Shown here: positions 1,148-56,285 of the stretch, piece by piece
Numbering within the stretch: the stretch's first letter is position 1
Layout: each line of letters opens with the position of its first letter
Source of the DNA: an uncultured Spirochaetales bacterium
GTDB taxonomy: Bacteria; Myxococcota_A; UBA9160; SMWR01
Length of the DNA stretch: 61,359 nucleotides
Assembly: GCA_964649065.1 (NCBI GenBank)
Contig: CAZYOL010000003.1
Coordinates: 1-61,359 of the forward strand
Reading direction: 5' to 3'
Notes under the pieces: generated by a model
Database searches by the model: none
Seen by the model: only the letters and a program-made list of their open reading frames with translations
Told to the model about the DNA's origin: nothing
Made by a program: the position numbers and the translations under genes

Positions 1148-2088
1148 CGGAAGGCGCCCCGTCGATACAGCCGCCACAGCTCGCGGCCGAAGGCCCAGGC
1201 CGGAAGCCGCGCCTCGCGCCAGCTCGGCTCGCAGCCGAGCCCCGAGTGGCGCTCGATCTTCCAGGCCAGGTAGTCCATGCCGCCCTGGAAGATCAGACCG
1301 TTGCGCAGCAGGCGCAGCAGGAAGCGGCTCTTGCCGACCACGCGGCGCAGCGCCCAGCGGGAGGGCGCGGCGCGCCGGACTTCGCTCGGGATCTCCACCT
1401 CGACCCAGAGAGCGCCGCCCTCGCGCCGGAGCTGGGCGGGCCAGGGCAGCTCGGGCAGCGCGCGCGAGGTCACCTCGCCCCAGCGCCCTTCCCGCCCGCC
1501 GACCCAGGCCGCCGCGGCTCCCGCGCGCTCGGCGCGGACCTCGCAGCGCCGGGTCTCCGCCAGCCCGCGGCGCCACAGCTCGCCCAGCTCCACGCGCGGC
1601 GGCAGCAGCGGGAGGACCCGACGCAGGAAGCCCAGCACCGCCTCGGCCAGGCTCACCGCGACCGCCCGGGCCACGGCCTCGTCCGCCGCGTAGACCAGGG
1701 CACAGGGCTGGGCGAAGCGGGCCCAGAAGTACGGCTCGAAGCCGCGGGCGTTCGAGCGCGCGAAGTCCCGGAGGGAGACGACCGCGTACTTGCAGCGCAG
1801 CAGGCGACCCGCGACGCGAGCCTCGAGCGAGAACACGTTGGGCGGGAGGCCTGCATTCAGCCAGCCCAGCCAGCGCTGCTCGTAGAGCCCTCGATAGCCG
1901 TCGACCAGCGCGTAGAGATCCAGCACGCCTTCGTCGTCGCCCCGGCGCAGGCAGGAGCCGTAGAGGAGGACGGCCCGGAGCCGCGGGCCGAAGCGCTCGC
2001 GCAGCTGCTCCGCAAGGATCCGGGCGCCGGGCGAGACCTCTCGCCCCAGCTCGTCGCCGAGGGTGCGAATCAGCTCGCCCGAGCTCAC
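1144..2088 (-). CDS. Tam41/Mmp37-like nucleotidyltransferase (possible CdsA-independent phosphatidate cytidylyltransferase)
   Basis: NTase-like LLYGSCLRRGDDEGVLDLYALV is followed by NVFSLEA..LRCKYAVVSLRDFAR and YFWARFAQPCALV, resembling Tam41 blocks recalled from memory. The GTG start at 2088 overlaps the kinase stop (GTGA). Its stop overlaps the desaturase stop in CTAG. Confidence 0.5.
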   Translation of the reverse strand: MSSGELIRTLGDELGREVSPGARILAEQLRERFGPRLRAVLLYGSCLRRGDDEGVLDLYALVDGYRGLYEQRWLGWLNAGLPPNVFSLEARVAGRLLRCKYAVVSLRDFARSNARGFEPYFWARFAQPCALVYAADEAVARAVAVSLAEAVLGFLRRVLPLLPPRVELGELWRRGLAETRRCEVRAERAGAAAAWVGGREGRWGEVTSRALPELPWPAQLRREGGALWVEVEIPSEVRRAAPSRWALRRVVGKSRFLLRLLRNGLIFQGGMDYLAWKIERHSGLGCEPSWREARLPAWAFGRELWRLYRRGAFR

Positions 2089-3221
2089 GCCGGAGCCGAC
2101 CCGCGCAGGAAGAAGGCCTCGCGCCCCGCGCTCAGGCAGAGCCCTCCGTCGGGGGCGCGCTCGAAGAGCTCGCCGTCGAGGGTGTAGCCGCTGTCGATCG
2201 ACAGATCGACGCGCTGGGCGTTCCAGCTCCGATAGCCGTTCTCGGGTCGCACGTGCCGATTGGGACGGCCTCGCAGCACCGGGAGCGTGGCCCGCAGGTA
2301 GCGCCGCGGTCGGTAGTCGAGGCAGGTGAGGCGCAGCGGGCCGGGTCCATGCCCCCAGAAGGGACGCAGGCCCAGGAACTGCTCCTCCATGGTCGAGCAG
2401 AAGAGCGCCAGCTGCGGCGTGCGCGGGAGCGCGAGGCCGTCGACGCTGCCGCGCACGCGCAGGGGCGGGAAATCGGCCTGGGCGCGCCCGCGCGCGAGGC
2501 GCGCGAAGACGAAGCCCAGCGCCACGGCGGCCCCCAGCGGCCCGCGCAGGCCCCGCGTCTCCACCCGCTGCTTGGCGAAGCGAATGCCGTGGTAGACGCA
2601 GCCGGCCCCGAAGAACATGGCAAAGCGCGCTCGGGGCTCGCCCGCGCGCTCGACCCGGATGGCCGGGCGCGCCTCGAGGCGCCCCTCGAGGCGACCCGCG
2701 GCCGCCTGCTGCAGCAGCTCGCGGAGGGCGTCACCGGAACGCGTCGCGTAGCCGACGTTGCGCGCCGAGGTGTTGGTGCTGCCGCCCGGCAGCAGGGCCA
2801 GCACGGGAAGCCCGGCGCTGCCGGCGCCCAGCACGCCGGTGAGGGCGGCCTGGACGGTGCCGTCGCCGCCGTTCACGACCAGCAGCTCGACCCCGTCGGC
2901 CACGCATCGGGAGGCCAGCTCGCTCAGCTCGGCAGGCTCGCGGGCCTCGCCATGGGCCACCCCCGCGGCGGCGAGCCGAGCGCGCAGCGAGCCCATCGCG
3001 CCCCGGCGGTTGCCACCGCTCGCCGGGTTGCTGAGGACGGCCAGCCGGATCGGTCGTCCCAGGGCCTGCCCCGGCCGGATCCGGGCGACGCTCGGCAGCG
3101 CCTCGGCGGGCGACTCCGAGCGAGCACCAGAGATCGACAGACTCAGAGCGCGCTCTCCCTCCTGCGCGACGCGAACCCGATCGTCCTCCGGGGATAGCAC
3201 GCCCCTCGCACCGGCGACCAC
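2085..3221 (-). CDS. Lipid kinase with diacylglycerol-kinase catalytic domain (YegS / sphingosine-ceramide kinase-like)
   Basis: DAGK_cat motifs are present: LSNPASGGNRR, ELLVVNGGDGTVQAAL, LALLPGGSTNTSARN. The GTG start at 3221 is uncertain. Confidence 0.8.
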   Translation of the reverse strand: MVAGARGVLSPEDDRVRVAQEGERALSLSISGARSESPAEALPSVARIRPGQALGRPIRLAVLSNPASGGNRRGAMGSLRARLAAAGVAHGEAREPAELSELASRCVADGVELLVVNGGDGTVQAALTGVLGAGSAGLPVLALLPGGSTNTSARNVGYATRSGDALRELLQQAAAGRLEGRLEARPAIRVERAGEPRARFAMFFGAGCVYHGIRFAKQRVETRGLRGPLGAAVALGFVFARLARGRAQADFPPLRVRGSVDGLALPRTPQLALFCSTMEEQFLGLRPFWGHGPGPLRLTCLDYRPRRYLRATLPVLRGRPNRHVRPENGYRSWNAQRVDLSIDSGYTLDGELFERAPDGGLCLSAGREAFFLRGSAPA

Positions 3222-3362
3222 GCCGCGCGCTTCGGGAGCAGCCCGAGCTCGAGCCAGGCCAGCGTCGCCCGCACGGAGACGCCGGCCAGGGCGAGGTTGC
3301 GCAGCCAGGAGGCGCTGGAGCCGCGAGCTCGGGACACGACGGCAGGCGAGCCGGCGCCCCGC

Positions 3363-3800
3363 TCAGGCGACGATCAGCCGCAGCAGCACCAGCAGGCCGA
3401 GGCCCAGCCCGAGCCAGACGAGCCGGTCGAGGCGGCGGCCCAGGCGGTCGATGCGGCCCAGCGCATCGCTCGGGATTTCCTCGAGCACCCTCTCCACCTG
3501 GCGCTCGATGCCCCCGAGGCGAGTCTCCACCAGGTGGAGGACCCGCCCCTCCAGCTCGGGGAGCTTCTTGCGGATCCGCTCGTCCAGCGCGGCGATCTGG
3601 TCGGTCGCCGCCAGGATCTGGACCAGCAGCTCGGGGGGCAGCGCCGAGTCTTCGCCCTCGGTGGCGGATCGCTGCAGCCACGGCCAGCGCCGGCGACGCC
3701 GGGGCCGCTCCTCGCGCGACAGCTCGCTGGCCGGCCAGGCCCGCTCGCCACTGCGCTGCTGGGCGCGCATCAGGGCGTCGTAGGTCTTCCCCATCGCCAC
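3363..3800 (-). CDS. Hypothetical tail-anchored coiled-coil protein
   Basis: The 145-aa ORF has GC-rich third positions, a charged helical middle (LDERIRKKLPELEGRVLHLVE) and one C-terminal hydrophobic helix (LVWLGLGLGLLVLLRLIVA). No family was recognised. Confidence 0.5.
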   Translation of the reverse strand: MAMGKTYDALMRAQQRSGERAWPASELSREERPRRRRRWPWLQRSATEGEDSALPPELLVQILAATDQIAALDERIRKKLPELEGRVLHLVETRLGGIERQVERVLEEIPSDALGRIDRLGRRLDRLVWLGLGLGLLVLLRLIVA

Positions 3801-3962: not shown

Positions 3963-6014
3963 CTAGCGCGGCGCGGCGGCCAGGTTTCCGCCGTCGACCG
4001 TCGCCACCGAGCCGGTGGTGCTCTCGGCCAATGCCAGGGAGAGGAAGGCCTCGGCGACGTCGTCGGCCGTGACCTCTCGGCCCAGCAGGTTCGAGCGGAA
4101 GTAGGCATCGGGCTCGAGCCCGCGGGCCGCGGCGCGCTCGCGCACCATCTGCTCGGGGAAGAGCCCGGTCCGCACCCGGTCGGCGTTGACCGCGTTGGAG
4201 CGGATGCCGTGCGCGCCGCCCTCCAGGGCGTACTGACGCATCAGGGCCACCAGCGCGGCCTTGGCCACCGCGTAGGGCCCGAAGCCGGGGCCGGGGTTGA
4301 AGGCGGCCTTGGAGGCGTTGAAGAGCAGGAACCCGCCGCTCCCCTGCTGCTTCATCACGCGGACCAGGGCCGAGGCCACGAACTGGTGGGCCAGCAGGTT
4401 GATGCGCAGGCTCTGCTCCAGGACCTCCGTGCCCAGCTCGGCCATTTCGCCCTGAGGAGCCGTTCCCGCGTTCGACACGCAGCCGTCGAGGCCGCCGAAG
4501 CGGGTCACCGCCCGCTCGACGCTGGCGCGGACGGCGGCCTCGTCCCCCACGTCGAGGCAGTCGTGGCCACAGGCGGCGGAGCCGAGGGAGTCGGCGAGCG
4601 CCTCCACGGGCCCGGACTCGCGGTCGATCAGCCAGAGGTGCGCGCCGGCGGCCGCGAAGCGCCGGGCGGTGGCGGCACCGATGCCGCTCGCCGCCCCCGT
4701 CACGAGCACGACCCGCCCCGCCAGCGGGGGAGGCTTGGCCTTGCCGAGCTTGGCCTGCTCGAGCGACCAGTACTCCATGTCGAAGAGGTCGTCCTCGCCG
4801 AGCACTTCGTAGCGGCCCAGGGCCTCGGCCCCGCGGATGACCGTCACCGTGCGCTCGTAGATGTCGGCCGCCACACGCGCGGCCTTGGCCGAGGGCCCCG
4901 CGCAGATCAACCCCACCCCCGGCACCAGGACGACCCGGGGATCCGGATCGAGGGCCTGGATCGAGCGCGCCACGCGCTCGCTCTGGCGGGCGACGTAGGC
5001 GCGGTAGTCCGAGCGGAAGGCGGCGATCCGCTCCGCGATCTGCGCCCGCAGCGCCTCGTCGTCGAGGGTGCCGGGATCGTCGAGGAGCAGCGGCACTCGC
5101 TTGGTGCGGATCACGTGGTCGGGCGTGGCCACACCGCGCTGCGACAGCTCGGCGAGGCGGGGATCGGCGACGAAGCTGCGCAGGGCCGGGCTGCTGCGCA
5201 CGTGCAGCACATAGCGACGCCCCTCGTCGCAGAGACGGCCGCGCAGCACCGGAAGCAGACGCACCAGGCTCTGCGAGGGTTCGATCGCCTCGGCCCTCGC
5301 CGGCGGCTCGATCCCCGCAGCGCCAGCCTCGCGCACCCGGGCCTCGGCCGCCTCGACCGCGGCCACGTGACGCTCGTAGGACTCGCGCGCCGTCTCGCCG
5401 AAGCTGAAGAGCCCGTGGCGCAGCAGCAGCAGGCCCTCGACCTCCGGCTTGCTCTCGTAGACCTCGGCGGCGAGCTTCGCCAGGGCGAAACCCGGCATCA
5501 CGTAGGGGACGATGCCGAAGCGCTCGCCGTAGAGCTCCCGACACAGGGCTTCGGCCTCGGGCTGGTCGACCAGCGAGAGGATGGCCTCGGCGTGCGAGTG
5601 ATCGATGTACTTGTGGGGCAGGAAGGCGTGCAGGAGCGTCTCGACCGAGGGATTGGGAGCCGAGGCGTCGAGCAGCCGCGTCCGCTGGGCGTTCACCATC
5701 TCCTCGTCGCTCAGGCTCTCGCGCCGGCGCAGCTCGAGGCGCGGCTCGAGCCGGACGGCGGGAAGGCCCTCCGGCTCGATGTCGCCCAGGTCCCAGCCGC
5801 TGCCCTTGACGCAGAGCACCGCCGTCTCGGTGCCGGTGTCGTCGGGCATGCGGGTCTTCACGGAGGTGTTGCCCCCTCCGTGCAGGACCAGCCGCGGATC
5901 CTGGCCGATCAGCCGAGAGGTGTAGACCCGGAGCGCCAGGTCCTCGCCCACGCCGCGCTCGCCGTAGCGCTTGACGTAGGCCCTCGCCTCCGTGTCCGAC
6001 CAGCGGTTCTCCAT
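3963..6014 (-). CDS. Bifunctional class II aldolase/adducin-domain plus short-chain dehydrogenase protein (rhamnulose-1-phosphate aldolase/alcohol dehydrogenase-like)
   Basis: The N-terminal half has YTSRLIGQDPRLVLHGGGNTSVK and VKGSGWDLG (aldolase-II type). The C-terminal half has the SDR motifs VTGAASGIG, NASKAA and YAVAKAA. I trimmed the start to ATG 6014 (MENRWSD). Confidence 0.85.
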   Translation of the reverse strand: MENRWSDTEARAYVKRYGERGVGEDLALRVYTSRLIGQDPRLVLHGGGNTSVKTRMPDDTGTETAVLCVKGSGWDLGDIEPEGLPAVRLEPRLELRRRESLSDEEMVNAQRTRLLDASAPNPSVETLLHAFLPHKYIDHSHAEAILSLVDQPEAEALCRELYGERFGIVPYVMPGFALAKLAAEVYESKPEVEGLLLLRHGLFSFGETARESYERHVAAVEAAEARVREAGAAGIEPPARAEAIEPSQSLVRLLPVLRGRLCDEGRRYVLHVRSSPALRSFVADPRLAELSQRGVATPDHVIRTKRVPLLLDDPGTLDDEALRAQIAERIAAFRSDYRAYVARQSERVARSIQALDPDPRVVLVPGVGLICAGPSAKAARVAADIYERTVTVIRGAEALGRYEVLGEDDLFDMEYWSLEQAKLGKAKPPPLAGRVVLVTGAASGIGAATARRFAAAGAHLWLIDRESGPVEALADSLGSAACGHDCLDVGDEAAVRASVERAVTRFGGLDGCVSNAGTAPQGEMAELGTEVLEQSLRINLLAHQFVASALVRVMKQQGSGGFLLFNASKAAFNPGPGFGPYAVAKAALVALMRQYALEGGAHGIRSNAVNADRVRTGLFPEQMVRERAAARGLEPDAYFRSNLLGREVTADDVAEAFLSLALAESTTGSVATVDGGNLAAAPR

Positions 6015-6111: not shown

Positions 6112-7377
6112 ATGCACGAGAAGCGTCTGGCCATCGACGGCGGCGCGCCGGTCCGCTCGCGCGAGCGGCCCTGGCCCGAATGGCCGCGCTACACCGAGGC
6201 GGCGCGGCGCGAGGTCGAGGCCGCCCTGGCCAGCGGCCGCTGGGCGATCAGCGGGCCCTTCCGCGGCGAGCCCTCGCGCAACCAGCGCTTCGCCGAGCGC
6301 TTCGCCGCTCTGCACGGCGTGCCGTACTGCATTCCGGCCTCGAGCGGCAGCGCCGGTCTGCTGATCGCCATGGAGGCGGTGGGCGTGGCCCCGGGCGACG
6401 AGGTCCTCGTGCCGGGTCTCACCTGGGTCGCCAACGCCTCCTCCGTGCTCCGGATCGGAGCGGTGCCCGTCCTGGTCGACGTCGACCCCGAGACCCTGTG
6501 TCTCTCCCCGCAGGCGGTCCGGGCCGCGCTCGGCCCGCGCACGCGGGCCATCGTGGCCGTGCACCTCTACGGCTCGATGGCCGACATGGACGCCCTGCCC
6601 GCACTCGCCGCCGAAGCCGGCATCCCCCTCATCGAAGACTGCTCCCACGTCCACGGCGCCCGCTGGCGTGCCTCCTGGGCCGGCTCGATCGGCGACGTCG
6701 GCGTCTTCAGCATGCAGCAGACCAAGCTCGTGACCTCGGGGGAGGGAGGCGCCGTGATCTCGCGGCACACACAGCTGGCGAGCCGCCTGGAGCAGATGCG
6801 AGCCGACGGCCGGGTGCTGCGGCCGAATGCCCGGGAGGGCGAGCTGGAGCTGCTGGAGCGGGGCGAGTGGGTCGGGGGGAACTACAACCTCTCCGAGCTA
6901 CAGGCGGCGCTGCTGCTGGAGGCCCTGGAGCGCCTGGAGGCCGAGAACGCGCGGCGAGCCCGGAACGCCGCTCTGTTGGACGAGGGCCTGGCGCGCCTCG
7001 AGGGCCTCCGGCCGGTGCCCTGCCTGCCCCCCCAGAGCCAGCGCGCCTACTACGGATACGTCCTGCGCGTCGACCCGGAACGTCTGGGAGGCCTCGCCCT
7101 GGGAGAGCTGGCGCTGCGGCTCAGCGCCGAGCTGCACTTCCCGGTGGAGCGCATCTACCGCGCCCTGGACGATCACCCCCTCTACCGGCCCACGCGGGAG
7201 AGCAGCCGGCGCTTCTCCCCCGAGCTCCGGAAGGCCATCGATCCCGAGCGCTTCGCGCTCCCCGAGTGCCGGCGCGCCTACGACGAGTGCCTGGCCTTCC
7301 ATCACCGCCTGCTGCTGGGCGACGAGCAGGACATGGCGGACGTGCTGCGGGCCTTCGAGAAGGTGCTCGAGGCCTAG
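6112..7377 (+). CDS. DegT/DnrJ/EryC1/StrS-family PLP aminotransferase (sugar or cyclitol aminotransferase type)
   Basis: Family-typical blocks are present: FEERFAALHGVPYCIPASSGSAGL, PGDEVLVPGLTWVA, VHLYG, IPLIEDCSHVHGA, and FSMQQTKLVTSGEGG with the PLP lysine context. I trimmed the start to ATG 6112. Confidence 0.85.
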   Translation: MHEKRLAIDGGAPVRSRERPWPEWPRYTEAARREVEAALASGRWAISGPFRGEPSRNQRFAERFAALHGVPYCIPASSGSAGLLIAMEAVGVAPGDEVLVPGLTWVANASSVLRIGAVPVLVDVDPETLCLSPQAVRAALGPRTRAIVAVHLYGSMADMDALPALAAEAGIPLIEDCSHVHGARWRASWAGSIGDVGVFSMQQTKLVTSGEGGAVISRHTQLASRLEQMRADGRVLRPNAREGELELLERGEWVGGNYNLSELQAALLLEALERLEAENARRARNAALLDEGLARLEGLRPVPCLPPQSQRAYYGYVLRVDPERLGGLALGELALRLSAELHFPVERIYRALDDHPLYRPTRESSRRFSPELRKAIDPERFALPECRRAYDECLAFHHRLLLGDEQDMADVLRAFEKVLEA

Positions 7378-8129
7378 GCGTAGTCGAAGGGCTCGAGCTT
7401 GCGCAGCAGCTTGTCGGCGTAGACGTAGCCGGCCCCCCTGCTGAGCACCTTGTTGACGAGGTGGGCGTAGGTGGGCATGGGCCGCAGGATGTCCGCGATC
7501 AGCACGACCCTGGGGCCGTCGCTCTCGTTCCGGACCTCGTGCTCCCAGGAGTCGTCCAGCATCACGCCCTGGCCCTCCTGCCAGGTGTGCCACTGGTCCT
7601 TCACCCGGATCGACGGGGGATTGTTCTTCGGCACCAGGATCGGCAGGTGGTAGCGCAGGTAGCCCATCCAGCCGGTCCGGTGCGGTGGAATCGACTTCCC
7701 CGGATCGAGGATGGAGAACATGGCCTGGAAGAGGTCGGGCACCTGGTCGAGCAGGGCGCAGGTCTTCGGACACAGCGCCCGGTTGCGCTCGGGCTTGCGC
7801 CCCATGGCGTAGAGGACGAAGACCTTCCAGTCTCCGGCACCCTCGGAGCTGATCTCCTGCTGGGCCTCGTCGAGATCCTGATAGCTGGGGAGCTTGTGGT
7901 GCAGGGGCAGGATCCCCTCCAGCTCCTCCCGGATCACCGGGAAGTTGCGGTCGAGGGCGCGCAGATCCGGACGCAGCCGGTCGACGTCGTAGAAGGCGGG
8001 GCGCTCGCGCCCCCCGCAGGCCCGGTAGAAGAAGCGGTTCACGGTATGGGTGAGCTGCCGCTCGGCGAAGGATCGCCCCTCCCAGGGAATCTCCCCCTGC
8101 AGCTGCTCGATTCGGGTCGTGGTGCTCAT
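7374..8129 (-). CDS. Aspartyl/asparaginyl beta-hydroxylase-family Fe(II)/2OG dioxygenase (LpxO/OlsC-like acyl 2-hydroxylase candidate)
   Basis: Blocks WKVFVLY, FSILDPGKSIPPHRG, GYLRYHLPILVP and WQEGQGVMLDDSWEHEV are typical of the family. The ATG at 8129 overlaps the stop of the ligase (ATGA). Confidence 0.8.
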   Translation of the reverse strand: MSTTTRIEQLQGEIPWEGRSFAERQLTHTVNRFFYRACGGRERPAFYDVDRLRPDLRALDRNFPVIREELEGILPLHHKLPSYQDLDEAQQEISSEGAGDWKVFVLYAMGRKPERNRALCPKTCALLDQVPDLFQAMFSILDPGKSIPPHRTGWMGYLRYHLPILVPKNNPPSIRVKDQWHTWQEGQGVMLDDSWEHEVRNESDGPRVVLIADILRPMPTYAHLVNKVLSRGAGYVYADKLLRKLEPFDYA

Positions 8130-9454
8130 AGGCTTCTCTCGTCGATGATGCGCCGGAGCTTGCGGCCGCTGCGCAGGCTGCCGCGCGGAAGCGGCTGGAC
8201 CTGCAGCTCGAAGAGCCCCAGCTCGAGGTTCTTCCAGAGCGTGTCATAGCGCACGCGCATCGCGTCCTCGATGCGCTTCGACACTCCCGCTCCCTCGGCG
8301 CCCGACTCCAGCTCGAGCTTGAGCTCGCAGAGGTCCCGGTGCCCGTCGTGCCGCATGACGGCCTGCCAGGTGCCCGAGACCTCGGGGACGGCGTCGAGGA
8401 TGGTCTCGAAGACCGCGGGGCTGACGCCCTCTCCCCCCAGCATCACGATCTCGTCGGCCCGTCCGCGCAGCCGCGAGAGGCGCTGGGTCACGATGCCGCA
8501 GTCGCAGGTCTCCGAGACGAGCTTGGCCACGTCGCCGTTTCGGTAGCGGATGAGCGGCATGGTACGACGGTCGAGCGTCGTGAAGGCGACCTCGCCGTAG
8601 CCCTCCTCGTCTGGGTTCAGGACCTCGAAGACGTAGCTGAACTCGTTGAGGTGGTAGCCGTCCCGACGGTGACACTCCATGCCGCCCGCCCCCTCGGAGC
8701 AGCCCCAGCACATGTACATCCGGGTGCCCCAGACCTTTTCGATGTACTCGCGCGAGCGTTCGGGCAGGCCCTCGCTGGCCCCCAGGACGAGGCGCATGGG
8801 AAAGGCCCCCTGCTCCTCGGCCAGCTCGGTGAGCCGCAGGATCCAGGAGACGTCTCCGATCAGCACGTTGTAGCGGTGCTCGCCGAGCCGCTGGTAGACC
8901 TCCGCGATGGGGATCTTGCCGGGGCAGGCCGAGAAGGCCCCGAGGCGGGTGAGCGCCCGCGCGAACCAGGGACCCCCGGTCCAGTAGTGGAAGTCCTGGG
9001 TGCTGATCACCCGATCCTCGGGCCGCATGCCGACGTGATAGAGGCCCACCGCCATCAGGCCCGCCGCCTCCTCCACCTCCCGGTGCGAGTAGTAGAGGGT
9101 CTTGGGCTTGCGGGTCGTCCCGCTGGTCTCGTAGATCTGCTGGGGCTCCTCGCAGAGAAAGGCCTCCGAGCCGTGGTCGAGCAGATCCTGCGGGCTGGTG
9201 CCGAAGTCTCCCAGCTCGGAGGGATGCTCGATCTTCGCGAGGTCCAGCCCCAGGCCTCCCAGGCGCTCCCGGTAGAAGGAGGAGTGCGCGGCCGCGTGCT
9301 GCAGCGTGCGCGGGAGCTTCCAGAGCTGGATGCTCCGCACCGCGTAGGGCGACGAGGCCCGCGCGGCCAGCGCGTAGGCGGTCTCGATGGAGTGGGCGTT
9401 CGCCAGCCGCGATACGCTCGCGGCGGTCGCTCCCAGCAGCCGGCGCTGCCACAT
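8126..9454 (-). CDS. Phenylacetate-CoA ligase / coenzyme F390 synthetase-like adenylate-forming enzyme
   Basis: The PaaK-family layout is present: SSFYRERL near the N-terminus, the AMP motif YETSGTTRKPK, the central WGCSEG, and C-terminal RYRNGD and LRGRADEIV. Confidence 0.75.
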   Translation of the reverse strand: MWQRRLLGATAASVSRLANAHSIETAYALAARASSPYAVRSIQLWKLPRTLQHAAAHSSFYRERLGGLGLDLAKIEHPSELGDFGTSPQDLLDHGSEAFLCEEPQQIYETSGTTRKPKTLYYSHREVEEAAGLMAVGLYHVGMRPEDRVISTQDFHYWTGGPWFARALTRLGAFSACPGKIPIAEVYQRLGEHRYNVLIGDVSWILRLTELAEEQGAFPMRLVLGASEGLPERSREYIEKVWGTRMYMCWGCSEGAGGMECHRRDGYHLNEFSYVFEVLNPDEEGYGEVAFTTLDRRTMPLIRYRNGDVAKLVSETCDCGIVTQRLSRLRGRADEIVMLGGEGVSPAVFETILDAVPEVSGTWQAVMRHDGHRDLCELKLELESGAEGAGVSKRIEDAMRVRYDTLWKNLELGLFELQVQPLPRGSLRSGRKLRRIIDERSL

Positions 9455-9464
9455 GGGAGAGACC

Positions 9465-10637
9465 TCAGCCGACCTCGGGCGCGCTCGAGGCGTCGCCCAG
9501 CGTCTCGACCCACTCCTCGAGCAGGCTGCGCTGCCGGAAGAGATCCTGCTCGACGCGACCGTCCACCACGGGACTCTTGAAGAAGAGCGAGAGCTGCTCC
9601 TGCGGGCCCGAGGCCCCGGCGCGAGCAGCCCGCTCCAGGAGCCGAGCCGCGTCGATCAGCAGGGGCGCGGCCAGCACCGAGTCGGCGCAGAAGGTGTTCA
9701 TCTTGAGCTGCATGGGAACGCCGCAGAAGCCGTTGAAGTCGATGCTGTCCCAGGACTCCTTGTTGTCGCCCCGGGGCCGGTAATAGCGGATGTCGACGAT
9801 GTGCGAGTCGACGGGGTAGCCCAGGATCTGGTCCAGCACGCCGGCCTTGTTGCGCAGCTTCTCGGCCGCGTTGTCCGGATCCGCCAGGTTCTCACCGTCC
9901 GCATTGCCCAGATAGTTGGCGCTGATCCAGCCCTCCACCTTCAGGCCGCGCAGGGCCAGCATCGGCGCGATGGCGGTCTTGATCAGGGTCTGGCCCGTCT
10001 TCCCGTCCTTGCCGCAGTAGGGCGTCTTGCTGCGGCGAGCCAGCTCCTTCAGGGCGGGCAGCTCCACGCTCACGTTCGGGGTGAAGTTCACGTAGGGCAC
10101 CCCGACCGTGAAGGCGAGCCAGGCATAGGCCATCGAGGGCGTGATCTCCGGACGATCCTCGAGCAGGGCCTTCTCGAAGCTGGAGACGTCGAGGCCCCAA
10201 GCCCCCTCCGGGGTCGCGAAGGCGGGCAGCAGATCGAGCAGCACCACCGAGCGGCCCGAGGCGACCAGGGATTCGAGCTGCTCCCGCGCGCGGTCCACGG
10301 ACTCGGCGCGGGGCGCCCCCAGCGCCGGCCAGGGGACGATCTCGCGCAGCTCCGGCTCGATCGTGTCGAGGGCCTGGGTGGGCAGCGTGCCCTTCTCCCG
10401 GGCCGCCTCGGCGAGGGAGCGGCCATCCACGTCCCAGCCGGCGACCCGGATCGACGACAGCGGCGTCAGATCGAGGCGGCTGGAGAGAGGGCTCCCGTCA
10501 CCGCTGCCGATCGGCCACGGAAGCTCCGTCAGCAGCCCGTCTCGCGTGCCGCCCTTGTGGATGAGTTCGAGACCAGCCGTCAGGGTGGTTCCGATCGACC
10601 CGGAGATCCCTGCGACTGCCAGAGTGATTTCGCTCAT
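9465..10637 (-). CDS. ino1: myo-Inositol-1-phosphate synthase
   Basis: MIPS blocks are present: VAGISGSIGTT (NAD-binding), VPYVNFTPN, CGKDGKTGQTLIKT, and GWISANYLGNADG with SWDSIDF. I trimmed the start to ATG 10637 (MSEITLAV). Confidence 0.85.
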   Translation of the reverse strand: MSEITLAVAGISGSIGTTLTAGLELIHKGGTRDGLLTELPWPIGSGDGSPLSSRLDLTPLSSIRVAGWDVDGRSLAEAAREKGTLPTQALDTIEPELREIVPWPALGAPRAESVDRAREQLESLVASGRSVVLLDLLPAFATPEGAWGLDVSSFEKALLEDRPEITPSMAYAWLAFTVGVPYVNFTPNVSVELPALKELARRSKTPYCGKDGKTGQTLIKTAIAPMLALRGLKVEGWISANYLGNADGENLADPDNAAEKLRNKAGVLDQILGYPVDSHIVDIRYYRPRGDNKESWDSIDFNGFCGVPMQLKMNTFCADSVLAAPLLIDAARLLERAARAGASGPQEQLSLFFKSPVVDGRVEQDLFRQRSLLEEWVETLGDASSAPEVG

Positions 10638-10696: not shown

Positions 10697-11593
10697 TCAG
10701 GCCGCCACCAGCTGCGCGCCCAGCATGCGCACCTCACCGCGCCGCACCAGGCGCTCGAGGCAGAAGGACAAGGCCGCGTCGAAGAACCACCGCCCGATCT
10801 TGCGGCGGGGGCTGATCGGCGTCTCGAAGCTGGTCATCGCGAACGCCGAGATCTCCTCGAAGTGCTTGGGCTCCTTGAGAAAGAGCCGCAGCTGCTCCTC
10901 GACGTTCATGAGCTGATCGCGCCGCTCGACCATGCGTCGCACGACGTCCTCTTGTACCACGGTCATGTGCCCGGTCACCATCACCCTGGGGGCGAGGTCG
11001 ATCATGCGCTGGAAGGAGGCATGCCAGTCGTCGAGATTGGCCAGCAGGTTCATGCAGGTGGCAGCGATGGGGTTGAGGTCGTAGTCGCCGGCGATCAGGA
11101 TTCCCCAGCGCTCCTCGAAGAGGGCCAGGTGCCCCACCGAGTGGCCGGGCGTATGCACGGCCCGGAAGCGCAGGGAGCCCAGGTCGATCACGTCCCCGTC
11201 CTCGAAGGTCTGCTCGATCGTGAAGGGCTTCGACTCCCAGAGCCGGGCCACCAGCCGATCCCACTCGTCGCACATGGACTGGCTCGGAAAGCCCTGGGCA
11301 TCGCGCAGCAGCGCCGGATCCTCCAGATAGGGCTTCTCGAGGGACTGGCAGGCGCGGGGGCAGTCGAAGAGGAAATTCAGCGAGGTGTGATCCGGGTGGG
11401 AGTGGGTGTTGACCACCAGGTCGTAGTCGGGGAGGCGCGGGCGTAGATACTCCTCGTGGCAGAGGCCCGGGTCGATCAGCACGCGCGAGCTGCCGGCCAG
11501 CTCCACCGCGTTCACATGCGGGTGCCGGCCGTGGAAGCGGCCCCCGTAGAGCACCGTCACGCCGGGATGGATCTCGACGGGCTTGGTGATCAT
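10697..11593 (-). CDS. MBL-fold metallo-hydrolase (possible chain-releasing thioesterase)
   Basis: The metallo-beta-lactamase motif THSHPDH and a downstream HTPGHSVGH are present. The ATG at 11593 overlaps the fabG stop (ATGA). Confidence 0.8.
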   Translation of the reverse strand: MITKPVEIHPGVTVLYGGRFHGRHPHVNAVELAGSSRVLIDPGLCHEEYLRPRLPDYDLVVNTHSHPDHTSLNFLFDCPRACQSLEKPYLEDPALLRDAQGFPSQSMCDEWDRLVARLWESKPFTIEQTFEDGDVIDLGSLRFRAVHTPGHSVGHLALFEERWGILIAGDYDLNPIAATCMNLLANLDDWHASFQRMIDLAPRVMVTGHMTVVQEDVVRRMVERRDQLMNVEEQLRLFLKEPKHFEEISAFAMTSFETPISPRRKIGRWFFDAALSFCLERLVRRGEVRMLGAQLVAA

Positions 11594-12330
11594 ATGGCCA
11601 TGCCCCCGTCGATGGTGAAGACCTGGCCCGTGATGTAGTCCGCGTCGCTGCCGAGCAGGTAGGCCACCAGCCGGGCGACCTCGGTCGCCGTGCCGAAGCG
11701 ACCCAGGGGGATGGCGGCCAGCATCCCCTCGCGGTTCTTCTCCGGAATCGCCTGCGTCATGTCGGTATCGATGAGTCCGGGCGCCACCACATTCACGGTG
11801 ATGCCGGAGCGAGCCGCCTCCCGCGCCAGGGCCTTCGTCAGGCCGATCAGGCCGGCCTTGGCCGCCGAGTAGTTGACCTGTCCCGGATTGCCCACCAGGC
11901 CGCTGATCGAGCCGATGTTCACGATCTTGCCGGCCTTGCGCTTCGACATGGAGAAGATCACCGCGCGGCAGAAGTTGAAGGTGCCGGTGAGGTCCGTATC
12001 GATGACCTCGTGCCACTCCTCCGGCTTCATCATGACGAAGGGGCGGTCGCGGGTGATGCCCGCGTTGTTCACGAGGCCGGTGATGGGACCGAGGCGCCCG
12101 GCCACCTCCTTGACCGTGGCCCGGACGGCCTCCAGATCCGTGGCGTCGCAGGCGAAGCCGGCCACGTGCGGGTTGCGCGGGGCCAGCTCCTTCACCAGCT
12201 CCTCGGCGGCCGCCACGCTCTCCCGGTAGGTGAAGGCCACGCGATCGCCTCGCATCGCGAGGGTGCGAACGATCTCGCGCCCGATGCCTCGGGTGCCGCC
12301 CGTGACCAGGACCACTGCCTCGTCCGACAT
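11590..12330 (-). CDS. fabG: 3-Oxoacyl-ACP reductase (SDR)
   Basis: Motifs VTGGTRGIG, NNAG, YSAAKAG (YxxxK) and a FabG-like C-terminus GQVFTIDGGMAI are present. I trimmed the start to ATG 12330. Confidence 0.9.
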   Translation of the reverse strand: MSDEAVVLVTGGTRGIGREIVRTLAMRGDRVAFTYRESVAAAEELVKELAPRNPHVAGFACDATDLEAVRATVKEVAGRLGPITGLVNNAGITRDRPFVMMKPEEWHEVIDTDLTGTFNFCRAVIFSMSKRKAGKIVNIGSISGLVGNPGQVNYSAAKAGLIGLTKALAREAARSGITVNVVAPGLIDTDMTQAIPEKNREGMLAAIPLGRFGTATEVARLVAYLLGSDADYITGQVFTIDGGMAI

Positions 12331-12332
12331 GG

Positions 12333-13355
12333 CTAGGCCGGCGCCTCCGGGCGGCGGACGGCCAGACAGAGCTGGGTCGAGTCGGGCTGGAAGTCCGTTA
12401 CCAGGGTCGTCGCAGGCCCCGCGGGCAGGGGCAGACCCTGCAGCGTGAGGCCGGCGCTCAGGGAGAGCGCGGCCAGCGCCGTGCCCAGGGCACCGCGGGC
12501 GCCCAGGGCGTCGCCCACGAGATTCGGCAGCGAGACTTCGAGCGGCGCCAGGCCCTCGAGCTCCGAGCCCGGGCTGCCGCAGTCGATCCTGTAGGCGGCC
12601 CGCTCTCCGGCGAGGGCCACCTCGGCCAGGCGCCGCTGCAGCTCCGCGCTGTCCTCTCCCAGGTCGAAGCCGCGCGCAGAGCCTCCGATCTCCGCCAGGG
12701 CAGGGGCGCCCCGCGCCACCGCCGACTCCGCCTCCTCCAGGACCAGCGCGTAGGCTCCCTCTGCGATGGGGCGCGCCGCGCCGACGGCTCCGTGGCGGAG
12801 CCACTCCTCGAGCTCCGGATTCCAGTAGTCCATACCGGCCGCGACGCCCGCGCGGGCCCGGCCGGCGCGGATCACCGAGGCGACGTCTGCGACCGCCTCC
12901 AGCGAGGCCGTCATGCCGCAGAAGGTCCGGGTGAAGCGCTGCGCCTCCAGGTAGACCGCGGTGTAGTTGGCCTGCGAATTCAGCGCTGCGTCGAAGGAGG
13001 CCATCGGCAGCACCTCACCGACGCCCTCGGTGAGGGTGCGGTGGGTGAAGCTGAAGGTCTCGCTGGTGTTCCCGAAGGCGCTGCCCACGGCGAAGCCGAG
13101 CTCCGCCGGATCTCCGAAGTGGGCATCCTCGAGGGCGAGCCTGGAGGCCGAGGCCAGCAGCCGCGTCCCGCGCCCGATGTAGCGAATGCCCTTGGTGCGC
13201 AGGATCGCAGCGACGTCGAACTCCTCGACATCGAGGCGCTCGCCGGCCAGTCGGGCCACGCCACCCTCGTGGGCCCGCTTCCAGAGGGCCTCGCGGCCGA
13301 TTCCCAGCGGGCTGACGGCGCCCACGCCCGTCACCACCACGCGCCGCTCGCTCAA
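12333..13355 (-). CDS. Ketosynthase-like partner subunit lacking the catalytic triad (chain-length-factor type)
   Basis: It has a thiolase-fold N-terminus, RRVVVTGVGAVSPLGIG. Aligned by eye to the adjacent KS, the active-site Cys position reads Met (FCGMTASLEAV versus NACSAGNHAI), and the two His motifs are absent. The proposed TTG start at 13355 overlaps the KS stop (TTGA) and is uncertain. Confidence 0.65.
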   Translation of the reverse strand: MSERRVVVTGVGAVSPLGIGREALWKRAHEGGVARLAGERLDVEEFDVAAILRTKGIRYIGRGTRLLASASRLALEDAHFGDPAELGFAVGSAFGNTSETFSFTHRTLTEGVGEVLPMASFDAALNSQANYTAVYLEAQRFTRTFCGMTASLEAVADVASVIRAGRARAGVAAGMDYWNPELEEWLRHGAVGAARPIAEGAYALVLEEAESAVARGAPALAEIGGSARGFDLGEDSAELQRRLAEVALAGERAAYRIDCGSPGSELEGLAPLEVSLPNLVGDALGARGALGTALAALSLSAGLTLQGLPLPAGPATTLVTDFQPDSTQLCLAVRRPEAPA

Positions 13356-14539
13356 TTCGGAGCTCCGAAGACGACGGCGCAGTTGTTGCCCCCGAAGGCG
13401 TAGGAGTTGTTCAGGGCGTAGCGGACCGGCAGCTCGCGTGCCTCGCCGGGCACACAGTCGATCGGGCAGGCCGGGTCGGGCTGCTCGTGATGGATCGTGG
13501 GGGGCACGCGCCCTTCCTGGATGGCCATGCAGCAGACGAAGGCCTCGATGGCACTCGCCGCTCCCATGGTGTGTCCGATCATGGACTTGATCGAGCTGCA
13601 GGGGAGCCGGCTGGCGCGCTCCCCGAAGACCTCGTGAAGAGCGCCCGCCTCCACCGGGTCGTTGGCGCGGGTGGCGGTGCCGTGCGCGCTGACGTAATCG
13701 ATCTGCTCCGGGGCCAGGCCCGCGTCGCCGAGAGCGTCGCGCATGGCGGCGACCGCCCCCCGGCCCTCGGGGTGGGGCGCAGCGACGTGGTGGGCGTCGC
13801 AGGAGATGCCGTAGCCCAGCACCTCGGCCAGGATCGGGGCGCCGCGGCGGCGCGCCGTCTCGAGCTCTTCGAGCACCAGCCAGGCGGCGCCGTCGCCCAT
13901 CACCAGGCCGCGCCGGTAGAGGTCGAAGGGCCGACAGACATCCGGGGCCAGAGCGCGCAGATTGTCGAAGTGGGTGAAGCTCGTGAAGCTCACGTGTCCG
14001 AAGCCGCCGGCCAGAACCAGGTCGGCCTGGCCGGAGCGAATCCAGTCGCAGCCCGCGGCGATGGCGTGGTTTCCCGCCGAGCAGGCGTTGGCGAGGGTCG
14101 AGACCGGGCCCGCGATGCCGTAGCGGCGCGCCAGCGTGTGAGCGGTGCGATCCGGATGGAGCCACTCCACGCTCTCGCCGGAGAGCCCGGCGCGGCGCTC
14201 GCCCGGGGCGGCGAGCATGCCCTTCTCGAAGAGCAGGGCCTCGCCTCCCAGGATGCCGACCGCCAGGCCGCTGCGCTCCGGGCACTCGGCCCGCCGTCCG
14301 CCGCGACCGCTGGCGGCCCAGGCCTCCTCGAAGGGCACGACGGCCAGGTGCTCGTGCGTCTGCTGCCCGGCCATCAGGCGGCTCTGGGCCGCTACGTGGG
14401 TACGGTGCTTGGAGGTGTCGAAGCCCTCGAGGGGCGCGACGCCGTCGCGCCCCTCGAGGAGATTCGCCCAAGACTCCCGGGCGTCGTCGCCGACGGCGCA
14501 GGCCACGCCGACGGCTGTGACGGCGACCCGGGGTCTCAC
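13352..14539 (-). CDS. Beta-ketoacyl-ACP synthase II-like (active KS)
   Basis: The catalytic motifs are intact: NACSAGNHAI (Cys), SCDAHH and SAHGTAT (His), with GHTMGAAS and a FGGNN C-terminus. The GTG start at 14539 overlaps the rSAM stop (GTGA). Confidence 0.9.
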   Translation of the reverse strand: MRPRVAVTAVGVACAVGDDARESWANLLEGRDGVAPLEGFDTSKHRTHVAAQSRLMAGQQTHEHLAVVPFEEAWAASGRGGRRAECPERSGLAVGILGGEALLFEKGMLAAPGERRAGLSGESVEWLHPDRTAHTLARRYGIAGPVSTLANACSAGNHAIAAGCDWIRSGQADLVLAGGFGHVSFTSFTHFDNLRALAPDVCRPFDLYRRGLVMGDGAAWLVLEELETARRRGAPILAEVLGYGISCDAHHVAAPHPEGRGAVAAMRDALGDAGLAPEQIDYVSAHGTATRANDPVEAGALHEVFGERASRLPCSSIKSMIGHTMGAASAIEAFVCCMAIQEGRVPPTIHHEQPDPACPIDCVPGEARELPVRYALNNSYAFGGNNCAVVFGAPN

Positions 14540-15960
14540 GCCACCTTCCGCCGCTTCCGCTCGGCCTCGTGGTAGATGCCCGAGTCGCGAAGCAGCCGGA
14601 GATTCTTCAGCACGTGCTCGAAGACCCCCTTCCAGTCCAGGTTGATGCGGTAGGCGAACATCGAGTTGAACGAGTTCCCCGTGCGCCGACGGCCATCGAA
14701 GGCGCGCTCCCGCAGGGCCTGCTTGCTGTACAGGTTGTCGTAGACGTACTGCATGCCGTCGATGAACTGCTCGAGGGACATGCTCTCCAGCAGGTGCGTG
14801 AGGTGGCCCGAGTTGTAGTAGACCCAGTCCTCGGGGAAGTTCTGGCGAATCGTCCGACCTTCCTGGGCCAGCCGCTTGCCGAGGTGGGTCCCCGGCATGC
14901 TGGTCAGGAGGCCGAAGGTCATCACGTCGATCCCCGACTCCCGCACGAACTCGACGGCGTTCTTGAAGGTGTCCGGACCCTCGCCGTCGGCCCCGAAGAT
15001 CATCGAGCCCCAGACGATCATCCCGGCGTTGTGGATGTTGTCGATGGCGACGCGGAAGTTGTCCACGCCGATCTTCAGGTTCGGACCCTTGCGCAGCTTG
15101 CGGAGGATCTGGGCATCGGTGGTCTCGATGCCGATCAGCATCCCCAGCCCGCCGCTGCGGGCCATGTACTCCAGCCCCTCGGTGTCGAGGCCCGTGCTGA
15201 ACTGGGTGAAGCCGAACCAGGTCTTGTGGATCCCGCGATCGACCATTCCCTTGAACAGGGCCTTGGCGTGGGCGTTGGCCTCCTTGCTGTAGCCGTAGAA
15301 GTTGTCCTCGGCGAGCATCAGGCCCTGGTAGGGGATCTCCTCCATCTCGTCGAGGATGTCGTGGACCGGCCGCATCCGGTACTTGTGGCCCTGCAGGACC
15401 GGCACGCAGCAGAACTCGCAGCGCCAGGGACAGCCCTTGGTGGTCACGATCGACGAGAACTTGTAGCCGTACTTGTTCGTCAGCAGATCGCGATCCGGCC
15501 GGTAGTCCTTCAGCAGCTCCAGGTCCGGGAGGCCCCCGTCGTAGAGCGGCTGCAGCGAGTCCTTGCGGTAGTCGGCCAGGAACTGCTCCCAGACGAGCTC
15601 CGCCTCGCCCTTGACGATGGCGTCCGAGTGCTGCGCCACCTCGTCCGGATGGGTGGTGGCATGGGCACCGCCGAAGACGACCTTCATGCCCTGGGCCCGG
15701 GCCGCATCGGCGATCTGGTAGGCCCGCGGCGCCTGGTAGGTGAGCGTGGTGATGCCCACCAGATCGGCGTCGAAGCGGAGCTTGCCGTTCTCGTCGATGG
15801 CCGGCTCGATCGCCTCATCGATGATGTCGACGTCCCACTCGTCCTTCGGAGTGAGTGCGGAGAGGTAGGCCAGGTTCAAGGGCATCTGCACGATGACCTT
15901 GATGTCCTCTTCGCCGCGATTCCCCGGCGGGTGCGGATTGATCAGCATCAGTTTAGGCAC
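14536..15960 (-). CDS. B12-binding-domain radical SAM enzyme (class B), family A, copy 2
   Basis: The N-terminal cobalamin-binding-type Rossmann segment reads DLVGITTLTYQAPRAY..VVFGGAHAT. The radical SAM cluster motif is GCPWRCEFC. It is a tandem paralog of 15948..17378. Confidence 0.85.
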   Translation of the reverse strand: MPKLMLINPHPPGNRGEEDIKVIVQMPLNLAYLSALTPKDEWDVDIIDEAIEPAIDENGKLRFDADLVGITTLTYQAPRAYQIADAARAQGMKVVFGGAHATTHPDEVAQHSDAIVKGEAELVWEQFLADYRKDSLQPLYDGGLPDLELLKDYRPDRDLLTNKYGYKFSSIVTTKGCPWRCEFCCVPVLQGHKYRMRPVHDILDEMEEIPYQGLMLAEDNFYGYSKEANAHAKALFKGMVDRGIHKTWFGFTQFSTGLDTEGLEYMARSGGLGMLIGIETTDAQILRKLRKGPNLKIGVDNFRVAIDNIHNAGMIVWGSMIFGADGEGPDTFKNAVEFVRESGIDVMTFGLLTSMPGTHLGKRLAQEGRTIRQNFPEDWVYYNSGHLTHLLESMSLEQFIDGMQYVYDNLYSKQALRERAFDGRRRTGNSFNSMFAYRINLDWKGVFEHVLKNLRLLRDSGIYHEAERKRRKVA

Positions 15961-18808: not shown

Positions 18809-18816
18809 GGCCTGCT

Positions 18817-21191: not shown

Positions 21192-21703
21192 CAGGAGCCG
21201 TTCCCCGACGACTGCGCCGCGGACAGGGTCGCGTCGCGTTGGATCGCCGCGCGGTCGACGCGCGCGAAGGTCAGCCCGGCCTTCAACACGACTCGGCCGT
21301 CCACTTCACCGCGAGCCTTGACCATGGCGGCCTTCGAGTAGATCCGCTCGACGTCGACGAAGATGCGCAGGGCATCGCCCGGCACGACGGGGTGCAGGAA
21401 GTGCGAGCGCGAGCGCCCGACCACGAAGACCTGGTCGGGCTCCGCCGAGAGCATCGACTCCCCGGTATCACTCATTCGGAAGAGCAGGATAGAGGCCTGC
21501 GCGCAGGCCTCCATCATCAGCGCACCCGGCATGATCGCGATCTCCGGGAAGTGCCCCGCGAAGTAGGGCTCGTTGCCGCTGACGTTCTTCAGACACTCGA
21601 TCGACTCGAAAGGAACGACGTCGATCACCCGGTCGATGAAGACGAACGGGTAGGTCTGCGGCAGCAGCCGACGGAGCGTGTCGAAGTCGAGGCCGGTCGA
21701 CAC
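21191..21703 (-). CDS. fabZ: 3-Hydroxyacyl-ACP dehydratase
   Basis: The FabZ signature is LLPQTYPFVFIDRV ... NEPYFAGHFPE..IMPGALMMEACAQ. It uses a GTG start. Confidence 0.85.
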   Translation of the reverse strand: MSTGLDFDTLRRLLPQTYPFVFIDRVIDVVPFESIECLKNVSGNEPYFAGHFPEIAIMPGALMMEACAQASILLFRMSDTGESMLSAEPDQVFVVGRSRSHFLHPVVPGDALRIFVDVERIYSKAAMVKARGEVDGRVVLKAGLTFARVDRAAIQRDATLSAAQSSGNGS

Positions 21704-21710
21704 GAACGTT

Positions 21711-23069: not shown

Positions 23070-23136
23070 AAGGCGGGCAGATGGCCTATGGTGGGGGCCG
23101 ATGGAACGAGCGCCTGCGGCGCTCAGGGGGGAAGTG

Positions 23137-49451: not shown

Positions 49452-49492
49452 GGCGGCGTCGCCCCCGAGACGATTCGACCCTCCGAGCGACA

Positions 49493-50351: not shown

Positions 50352-50386
50352 CGGAGCTGGCAAGGCGCCCGAAACGAAGGCTCCCA

Positions 50387-50556: not shown

Positions 50557-50576
50557 GATTCGATATTCAGTACATT

Positions 50577-56281: not shown

Positions 56282-56285
56282 GGGG

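Follow-up and report, generated by a model that had tools for sequence, protein, structure and literature searches.

A myo-inositol-phosphate synthase, an adenylate-forming ligase and an inosose-type aminotransferase are associated with an orphan ladderane-like lipid cluster in Myxococcota and a second bacterial lineage

Introduction

Hygromycin A carries an aminocyclitol that is amide-linked to an acyl moiety. The aminocyclitol is made by Hyg18, a myo-inositol-1-phosphate synthase (MIPS), together with a phosphatase (Hyg25), a dehydrogenase (Hyg17) and an aminotransferase (Hyg8) (PMC10949010). Ladderane-like clusters, which combine genes of the type II fatty acid synthase (FAS-II) kind with radical SAM genes, are flagged widely by genome-mining tools in Myxococcota, Desulfobacterota and other phyla. 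"Ladderane"-type clusters of Myxococcota and Desulfobacterota have been reported from Cariaco Basin genome assemblies with product unknown, and no product is known for ladderane-like FAS-II/radical SAM clusters outside the anammox bacteria (PMC9902471). The present work concerns a 61,359-nucleotide stretch of metagenomic DNA (contig CAZYOL010000003.1 of GCA_964649065.1; the whole stretch is referred to as the window), in which a cluster of this kind adjoins genes for a MIPS, an adenylate-forming ligase and an aminotransferase of the DegT family. The enzyme types and the aminocyclitol chemistry are known, and what is new is their conserved association with an orphan lipid-type cluster, which points to an undescribed lipid or natural product containing a ring that resembles an amino sugar. 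Full-text literature searches returned no report of MIPS, the ligase, an inosose aminotransferase, or inosamine or cyclitols linked to ladderane-type clusters.

Results

Gene content of the window

The genes for MIPS, the ligase and the aminotransferase travel with a family of lipid clusters, in several gene orders and in at least two lineages, and the window holds one example. The sequence comes from a stromatolite metagenome, and its closest named relatives are Myxococcota genome assemblies. Because the window is ~72% G+C, genes were called by third-position GC (GC3) and frame analysis, followed by Pfam and NCBIfam scans. All five genes named in a preliminary description of the locus (the first five below) were found where they had been placed, with strong domain matches in these databases.

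3963-6014, minus strand: bifunctional class II aldolase/short-chain dehydrogenase/reductase (SDR) (NF006192, 905 bits against a cut-off of 639)
6112-7377, plus strand: DegT_DnrJ_EryC1 aminotransferase, here called DegT (Pfam, E 6.6e-81)
7374-8129, minus strand: Asp_Arg_Hydrox dioxygenase of the Fe(II)/2-oxoglutarate, Asp/Asn beta-hydroxylase family, here also called the hydroxylase (PF05118, E 9.5e-46)
8126-9454, minus strand: PaaK-like adenylate-forming ligase (Pfam AMP-binding and AMP-binding_C_2)
9465-10637, minus strand: MIPS (PF07994 NAD_binding_5, E 2.6e-37; PF01658 Inos-1-P_synth, E 2.2e-30)
10697-11593, minus strand: metallo-beta-lactamase (MBL)-fold hydrolase adjoining MIPS upstream (PF00753)
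11590-21968, minus strand: FAS-II-like operon (Pfam/NCBIfam)
22236-28702, plus strand: divergent arm (Pfam)

The minus-strand coding signal is unbroken from 21968 through the FAS-II-like operon, of which the MBL-fold gene is the last, and MIPS begins 59 nt behind that gene, in agreement with the earlier statement that it lies directly after the lipid operon. The 390-aa MIPS product has also been called independently in a protein database. A gap of only 10 nt separates the MIPS stop from the ligase ATG, and the ligase stop overlaps the hydroxylase start as ATGA (8126-8129), which bears out the coupled run of MIPS, ligase and dioxygenase that had been described; the convergence of the DegT-type gene could likewise be read from the sequence, its stop sharing CTAG with that of the hydroxylase at 7374-7377. 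The bifunctional aldolase/SDR described beyond DegT is a real gene, but its start had to be moved. Taken at its longest, the open reading frame (ORF) of DegT would begin at 5992 and that of the aldolase/SDR at 6134, so that the two would overlap head to head; profile matches and ribosome-binding context make 6112 and 6014 (rather than 6134), respectively, the most likely true starts, so that a 97-nt divergent intergenic (promoter) region would precede DegT. A search of the region for riboswitches, other RNA elements, promoters and terminators gave nothing relevant, and the whole window yielded two tRNAs only.

MIPS and its conserved partner

Both MIPS Pfam domains exceed their gathering scores (NAD_binding_5, 129.4 bits against 25; Inos-1-P_synth, 105.4 bits against 27). 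The best solved structures are the inositol-3-phosphate synthase 7nwr (213 bits) and the Archaeoglobus fulgidus MIPS 1u1i (185 bits), and a five-membered cyclitol phosphate synthase of related fold, 6k96, reaches only 47 bits. In the alignment with 1u1i, nine of nine catalytic residues of the A. fulgidus enzyme are conserved (D225, N255, L257, D261, K274, K278, K306, D332 and K367), and the same nine are invariant across 19 aligned members of the clade. Because all of these residues are kept, the window MIPS looks like a working, catalytically intact enzyme, and it is predicted to convert glucose-6-phosphate to inositol-phosphate.

Homologues of this MIPS split sharply into one clade of at least 60% identity and a remainder at or below 47%. 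Wherever MIPS is found at 64-83% identity, which is the case on 11 contigs (L001/L008, L002/L011, L003, L004, L007, L009, L010, L077, L078, L079 and L164 in our locus numbering), the ligase is the next or next-but-one gene downstream, and the neighbours always include ketosynthase (KS), acyl carrier protein (ACP), FabZ and radical SAM genes. By contrast, a ligase stands beside MIPS in none of the ~60 loci at or below 47% identity. The ligase homologues divide in a pattern matching that of MIPS, with one clade at 62% identity or more and the others at ~44% and below.

Two architectures of the cluster can be distinguished. In the first, the window type found in Myxococcota, FabG is followed by the MBL-fold gene, MIPS, the ligase and the hydroxylase; the order of the FAS-II-like operon and the position of the MBL-fold gene before MIPS are kept in L004, L077 and L164, and the hydroxylase follows the ligase in L077 and L164 and converges on DegT in L085. 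In the second, ABC transporter/MlaC genes are divergent from MIPS, which is followed by a small ORF, the ligase, KS, ACP, a 3-hydroxyacyl-CoA dehydrogenase (3HCDH), an enoyl-CoA hydratase (ECH), KS, a TetR regulator, ACP, FabZ and two further KS genes onward. Assemblies with the second architecture are labelled delta-proteobacterium or Thermodesulfobacteriota, and one member of the aminotransferase clade is labelled Candidatus Binatia. A gene resembling inositol monophosphatase lies beside the MIPS unit in L010.

The aminotransferase belongs to the inosose subfamily

The best full-length matches of DegT are L-glutamine:2-deoxy-scyllo-inosose aminotransferases (5w70, 400 bits, E 1e-118; 5w71, 348 bits; BtrR 2c7t, 346 bits), to which it aligns over residues 5-419 at ~50% identity. 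Other aminotransferases score far lower: AHBA synthase reaches 182 bits, and ArnB (174 bits) and the other nucleoside diphosphate (NDP)-sugar enzymes reach at most 174 bits over residues ~44-327 only. The pyridoxal phosphate (PLP) lysine K205, in the motif SMQQTK, aligns with that of 5w70 and is invariant in the clade, and many of the homologues are named inosose aminotransferases at JGI. Judged by its sequence, DegT is a member of the inosose (BtrS/StsC-type) subfamily, with an inosose as its presumed substrate. The earlier suggestion of a cyclitol-type enzyme is thereby upheld, at 346-400 bits for the inosose enzymes against no more than 182 for any other aminotransferase, and clustering with NDP-sugar enzymes, which had been named as the outcome that would speak against it, is not seen because DegT falls in the inosose subfamily. 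A role as the NDP-sugar aminotransferase of a polysaccharide pathway is ruled out by the gap in solved-structure scores and by the neighbouring genes.

Members of the DegT clade (at least 59% identity) adjoin genes of the lipid cluster in four gene orders. In the window, L085 and L077, DegT converges with the hydroxylase-ligase-MIPS run, and in L081 and L084 it lies between the aldolase/SDR (with or without a major facilitator superfamily (MFS) sugar transporter) and the hydrolase/SDR end of the divergent arm. In the third order (L080, L087, L088 and L090-L092), DegT is divergent from an inositol monophosphatase (PF00459 in L080), an LPG_synthase_TM membrane protein follows, and DegT also converges with a KS/radical SAM operon headed by a B12 radical SAM enzyme. 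In the fourth, represented by L089, it converges with the ligase. Homologues of the tandem radical SAM enzymes of the window (61-63% identity) adjoin DegT in L080, L087, L088 and L092.

The inositol monophosphatase-family gene and the gene for the LPG_synthase_TM (MprF/HpnL-like) protein that flank DegT in L080 are located at L080:8649-9491 and 11079-12110, and this arrangement hints at flipping of an amine-bearing lipid.

Linkage of DegT to the MIPS-ligase pair in the second architecture could be read on a single long contig. CAWESA010000024.1 (381,569 bp) includes both L080 and L001, with DegT at ~227 kb and MIPS at ~252 kb; DegT and the inositol monophosphatase are ~23 kb from the MIPS-ligase pair, and the two groups sit at opposite ends of one continuous cluster. 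In a second genome, a gene of the DegT clade lies on a contig of 1,801,076 bp, which is also the length of the contig with the MIPS-ligase pair of L002, so that the two probably share a contig. Between the architectures, identity is 65% for MIPS, 64% for the ligase, 61-63% for the tandem radical SAM enzymes and 61% for DegT, as against 33-56% for the FAS-like parts, and this highest conservation of the four suggests that they form a co-inherited module.

A pairing of the same kind was found on unrelated metagenomic contigs (L094-L100), in which a MIPS (33-46% identity) lies directly beside an aminotransferase of the DegT family (43-52%), as in L095:25-4964, L097:2238-8019 and L099:5396-9501. 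These contigs also hold a BtrN-like SPASM radical SAM dehydrogenase (151 bits to 4m7t), aminoglycoside phosphotransferase (APH)-type kinases, and a methyltransferase or GT2 glycosyltransferase. The cassettes look like an anaerobic pathway to an inositol-derived aminocyclitol with an orphan product, and because the contigs are unrelated they indicate that MIPS and an inosose-type aminotransferase are a recurrent biosynthetic pairing. Proteins of 1214-1475 aa adjoin them.

Ligase and dioxygenase

The labels "PaaK-like" and "LpxO/OlsC-family" given to these two enzymes in the preliminary description hold at the level of the superfamily but do not extend to the equivalogs. Against the NCBIfam models the ligase scores 189 bits for DVU_1553 (NF045666; cut-off 300) and 107 bits for FlxY (cut-off 520), and against the PaaK equivalogs 109 bits for TIGR02155 (cut-off 646) and 135 bits for NF041878 (cut-off 700). 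True membership of PaaK, FlxY or DVU_1553 was therefore rejected. The best structure matches are CoA ligases, headed by PaaK 4r1l at 128 bits. Direct formation of esters or amides is known for PaaK-like ligases such as NatL2/AjiA1, which appear as weak structural matches of the window ligase, and this speaks for a role connected with an amine. For the dioxygenase, OlsC (155 bits, cut-off 450) and LpxO (112 bits, cut-off 500) are nonetheless the best NCBIfam matches; true OlsC or LpxO membership was rejected on these cut-offs, and assignment to the PF05118 family stands.

A sister clade of the ligase (43-44% identity) always occurs with a haloacid dehalogenase (HAD) phosphatase and a class-III aminotransferase (e.g. 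L165:7720-11341, L167:10001-13381 and L169:8175-11555). This pairing with an aminotransferase fits a ligase that acts on an amine made next door. One such triad lies within an acidobacterial cluster of glycolipid type, with MGDG-synthase-like glycosyltransferases, a deacetylase and a B12 radical SAM enzyme, and another lies beside a protein of >3400 aa.

The lipid operon, the divergent arm and further lipid genes

The minus-strand operon begins with ACP (21711-21968) and continues with FabZ, KS, a protein resembling chain-length factor (CLF), a CrtI-family desaturase, two B12 radical SAM enzymes, a second KS, a second CLF-like protein, FabG and the MBL-fold protein. The last of these has only weak similarity to glyoxalase II and to lactonases and is a candidate thioesterase or phosphatase. 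On the divergent arm, a gene for an enoyl-CoA hydratase is accompanied by a tandem pair for B12 radical SAM enzymes (23101-24693 and 24609-26264), and the arm also encodes an SDR (27782-28702) and two alpha/beta hydrolases. All four B12 radical SAM enzymes score 56-75 bits against the ladderane marker TIGR04072, whose cut-off is 360.

The tandem radical SAM paralogues of the plus strand (23101-26264) carry DUF4070, and a homologue is found at L080:12144-13697; the substrate of these paralogues may be the cyclitol part and not the acyl chain. Matches to the type II polyketide synthase-like enzymes of cispentacin biosynthesis were noted below threshold for the KS at 19980-21191 (AmcF, 250 bits against 325) and the FabZ-like protein at 21191-21703 (AmcE, 101 bits against 140), and these hint at carbocycle-forming or otherwise atypical KS/dehydratase chemistry.

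Downstream of the aldolase/SDR and on the same strand (164-3800) are a 145-aa ORF of unknown function, a DAGK_cat-type lipid kinase (2085-3221) and a 314-aa ORF of unknown function, with a convergent fatty-acid desaturase at 164-1147, and this group may extend the lipid-tailoring complement of the cluster. At 53561-60521 lies a separate lipid-remodelling neighbourhood, in which a cyclic-nucleotide (cNMP)-binding domain occurs twice, once fused to an MMPL/RND-type transporter and once in a patatin-like phospholipase; a WS/DGAT wax-ester/triacylglycerol synthase and an SCP2 protein are also encoded there. A patch of lower GC3 at 48629-51666 resembles a toxin-antitoxin set, with ORFs for a helix-turn-helix protein, a PIN-domain protein and a DUF6036 nucleotidyltransferase-like protein. 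The tRNA genes are located at 51593-51666, at the end of this patch, and at 60607-60680.

Enzymes sought in the window

A search of the flanks for a phosphatidylinositol phosphate (PIP) synthase or a glycosyl/inositol transferase had been suggested when the locus was first described. Pfam scans of essentially all coding-like ORFs in the 61-kb window found neither a CDP-alcohol phosphatidyltransferase (PIP synthase) nor a glycosyltransferase. A head group of the phosphatidylinositol type is unlikely because a CDP-alcohol phosphatidyltransferase is lacking, and inositol use of the phosphatidylinositol, di-myo-inositol phosphate (DIP) or mycothiol type was rejected on the joint absence of this enzyme and of glycosyltransferases. 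A PF01408 inositol dehydrogenase was seen in neither the window nor its relatives. Searches of the window by tblastn with the inositol monophosphatase, LPG_synthase_TM protein, MFS transporter, small ORF, 3HCDH and MlaC/ABC proteins of the relatives were all negative.

Discussion

We lean towards the view that the window contains an orphan ladderane-like FAS-II/radical SAM lipid cluster with its own cyclitol branch, in which an inosamine is joined to a modified acyl chain. The gene identities, the aminotransferase subfamily, the intact active site of MIPS and the conserved linkage are established directly, and from these we infer the substrates, the attachment step and the target of hydroxylation. 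MIPS, with its intact active site, would convert glucose-6-phosphate to inositol-phosphate, from which a phosphatase would free inositol. Relatives carry an inositol monophosphatase in the cluster for this step; since the window has none, the task would fall to a housekeeping enzyme or to the MBL-fold hydrolase. An oxidoreductase would then make the inosose, a step for which a B12 radical SAM enzyme may be suitable, as may the SDR half of the aldolase/SDR, and DegT, an inosose aminotransferase by family, would convert this to an inosamine. In parallel, the KS/CLF pairs, FabZ, FabG, the CrtI-like desaturase and the B12 radical SAM enzymes would build a modified acyl chain on ACP. The ligase would adenylate the resulting acid and couple the aminocyclitol to it, giving a lipid or natural product of the N-acyl-inosamine type; an amide bond between acid and aminocyclitol is the most likely outcome of the putative ligase reaction. 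In the Myxococcota version, the OlsC/LpxO-like dioxygenase might then hydroxylate the product. Unproven candidates for the dephosphorylation and oxidation steps together comprise two SDRs (that at 27782-28702 and the one that forms half of the aldolase/SDR), the MBL-fold hydrolase and, by analogy with BtrN, a B12 radical SAM enzyme.

A broader and more tentative proposal is that MIPS, the ligase, the inosose aminotransferase and a conserved B12 radical SAM enzyme form a portable head-group module, and that Myxococcota and Binatia-like bacteria possess a new class of phosphate-free membrane lipid, in which a radical-SAM-modified acyl chain would carry an inosamine through an amide bond (or through a C-C or ether bond made by the radical SAM enzyme).

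Several observations weigh against the proposed inosamine lipid. Inositol monophosphatase, PF01408 inositol dehydrogenase and acyltransferase genes were all absent from the Pfam scans of the 61-kb window, and with neither phosphatase nor dehydrogenase found, two steps of the pathway have no assigned enzyme. The ligase falls short of every equivalog cut-off. The hydroxylase and the aldolase/SDR were seen only in the Myxococcota-type architecture and are absent from the second (L001/L080). The myxococcotal assembly GCA_029979955.1 has DegT and the MIPS-ligase-hydroxylase run (L164) on separate contigs, and the far-side neighbours of DegT there (an SDR, a pyrroloquinoline quinone (PQQ) dehydrogenase and APH kinases) are not lipid genes. 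The sequence was present in four DNA runs, from a stromatolite metagenome, and in no RNA runs. Finally, the ligase of the relatives at 64-69% identity heads the order ligase-KS-ACP-3HCDH-ECH-KS, with TetR before the second ACP/FabZ/KS set.

This last order favours the alternative that survives best, namely that the ligase, in the manner of hygromycin A, activates a starter or other free acid, which may be aromatic, alicyclic or fatty, and transfers it to CoA or ACP so that the KS/CLF pairs can extend it; the inosamine, still a product of MIPS and DegT, would be joined to the chain by an alpha/beta hydrolase, a KS-like protein or a radical SAM enzyme. Loading of an aromatic starter acid had already been raised in the preliminary description. 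The weak matches of the ligase to PaaK and to the flexirubin ligase FlxY, and the CoA ligases among its best structures, are in keeping with such a role. Biosynthetic genes for an aromatic or alicyclic acid (of the ammonia-lyase, chorismate or shikimate type), however, were seen neither in the window nor in the loci of the relatives, the extra KS-ACP-3HCDH set is absent from the window-type cluster, and the strict adjacency of MIPS and ligase, 10 nt apart in the window, would be unexplained if their substrates were unrelated. Starter loading is for these reasons considered unlikely, though it deserves to be kept in view.

It is improbable that two unrelated modules have come to lie side by side, with MIPS and the ligase belonging to the lipid cluster (for instance as a source of unmodified inositol for an ester or ether link) and DegT and the aldolase/SDR serving to import, break down or produce a soluble aminocyclitol, for example a rhizopine-like inosamine. 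DegT is indeed a separate, convergent transcription unit, it lies beside an MFS sugar transporter in L081-L085, its far side in L081-L083 is occupied by the SDR, PQQ dehydrogenase and APH kinase genes, and it is off the MIPS contig in GCA_029979955.1. Even in L081 and L084, however, it adjoins the hydrolase/SDR arm; in all four arrangements the neighbours of its clade are cluster genes, which include the ligase in L089 and, in a distant lineage, the radical SAM and inositol monophosphatase genes of L080; and across the architectures it has diverged (61%) in step with MIPS and the ligase (64-65%). A housekeeping supply of inositol, to be used in phosphatidylinositol, as an osmolyte or in a mycothiol-like thiol, with the position of MIPS after the lipid operon incidental, is very improbable: although the enzyme is catalytically canonical and many bacteria keep a stand-alone MIPS (e.g. 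L005, a distant homologue near phosphoglucose isomerase), the window clade (at least 60% identity) is found only beside the ligase in such clusters, stand-alone MIPS sequences are at or below 47%, and the 61 kb contain no PIP synthase, DIP synthase or MshA-type glycosyltransferase.

If an inosamine is indeed joined to the acyl chain, the dedicated branch from inositol to an aminocyclitol would provide a cheap analytical signature, namely inositol or inosamine after hydrolysis and a polar group containing nitrogen. MIPS, the aminotransferase and the ligase make up a small set of assayable enzymes, so that the chemistry could be approached without culturing the organism. As a membrane lipid, the product would add an aminocyclitol class to the ornithine lipids, sphingolipids and hopanoid cyclitol ethers; as a secreted metabolite, it would be an acyl-aminocyclitol like hygromycin A from a new source. 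Should the portable head-group module prove correct, it would be the first chemical handle on the products of non-anammox ladderane-like clusters.

Comparison with known systems

The window cluster shares ACP, FabZ, pairs of FabF-like KS, a phytoene-desaturase-like enzyme and B12 radical SAM enzymes with the non-anammox clusters that antiSMASH labels "ladderane" (Rattray et al. 2009, PMC2649909; PMC9902471), and differs in that its radical SAM enzymes score below the TIGR04072 cut-off. With the acyl 2-hydroxylases OlsC and LpxO the dioxygenase has the Pfam family PF05118 in common, whereas its scores lie far under their cut-offs and the gene is missing from the second architecture. The bacterial inositol-lipid pathway likewise employs a MIPS of canonical type, 7nwr being the best structure match, but continues with PIP synthase and PIP phosphatase, where the window has an aminotransferase and a ligase and no CDP-alcohol phosphatidyltransferase.

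Closer likenesses are found among the aminocyclitol pathways. DegT resembles the BtrR/BtrS- and StsC-type aminotransferases in its full-length match, including a C-terminal domain that the NDP-sugar enzymes do not match, in its PLP lysine and in having a cyclitol synthase as partner gene. In the aminoglycoside pathways that partner is a 2-deoxy-scyllo-inosose synthase resembling dehydroquinate synthase (DHQS), and glycosyltransferase/aminoglycoside genes are present; in the window cluster the partner is MIPS, and no such genes occur in its context. The hygromycin A cluster differs in its host, Streptomyces as opposed to Myxococcota and Binatia-like bacteria, and in its acyl part, which is a short aryl-acrylate; the window has a long FAS-II-like system that includes four B12 radical SAM enzymes and a CrtI-like desaturase. 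The window cluster in turn has no PF01408 (Gfo/Idh/MocA) dehydrogenase and no sugar, methylenedioxy or resistance genes. Both clusters nevertheless unite an adenylate-forming ligase, KS and ACP with a MIPS and an aminotransferase (and, in the relatives of the window, an inositol monophosphatase), and the logic proposed for the window, glucose-6-phosphate to inositol to inosose to inosamine, is that of hygromycin A (PMC10949010); streptomycin follows a like logic in its cyclitol arm.

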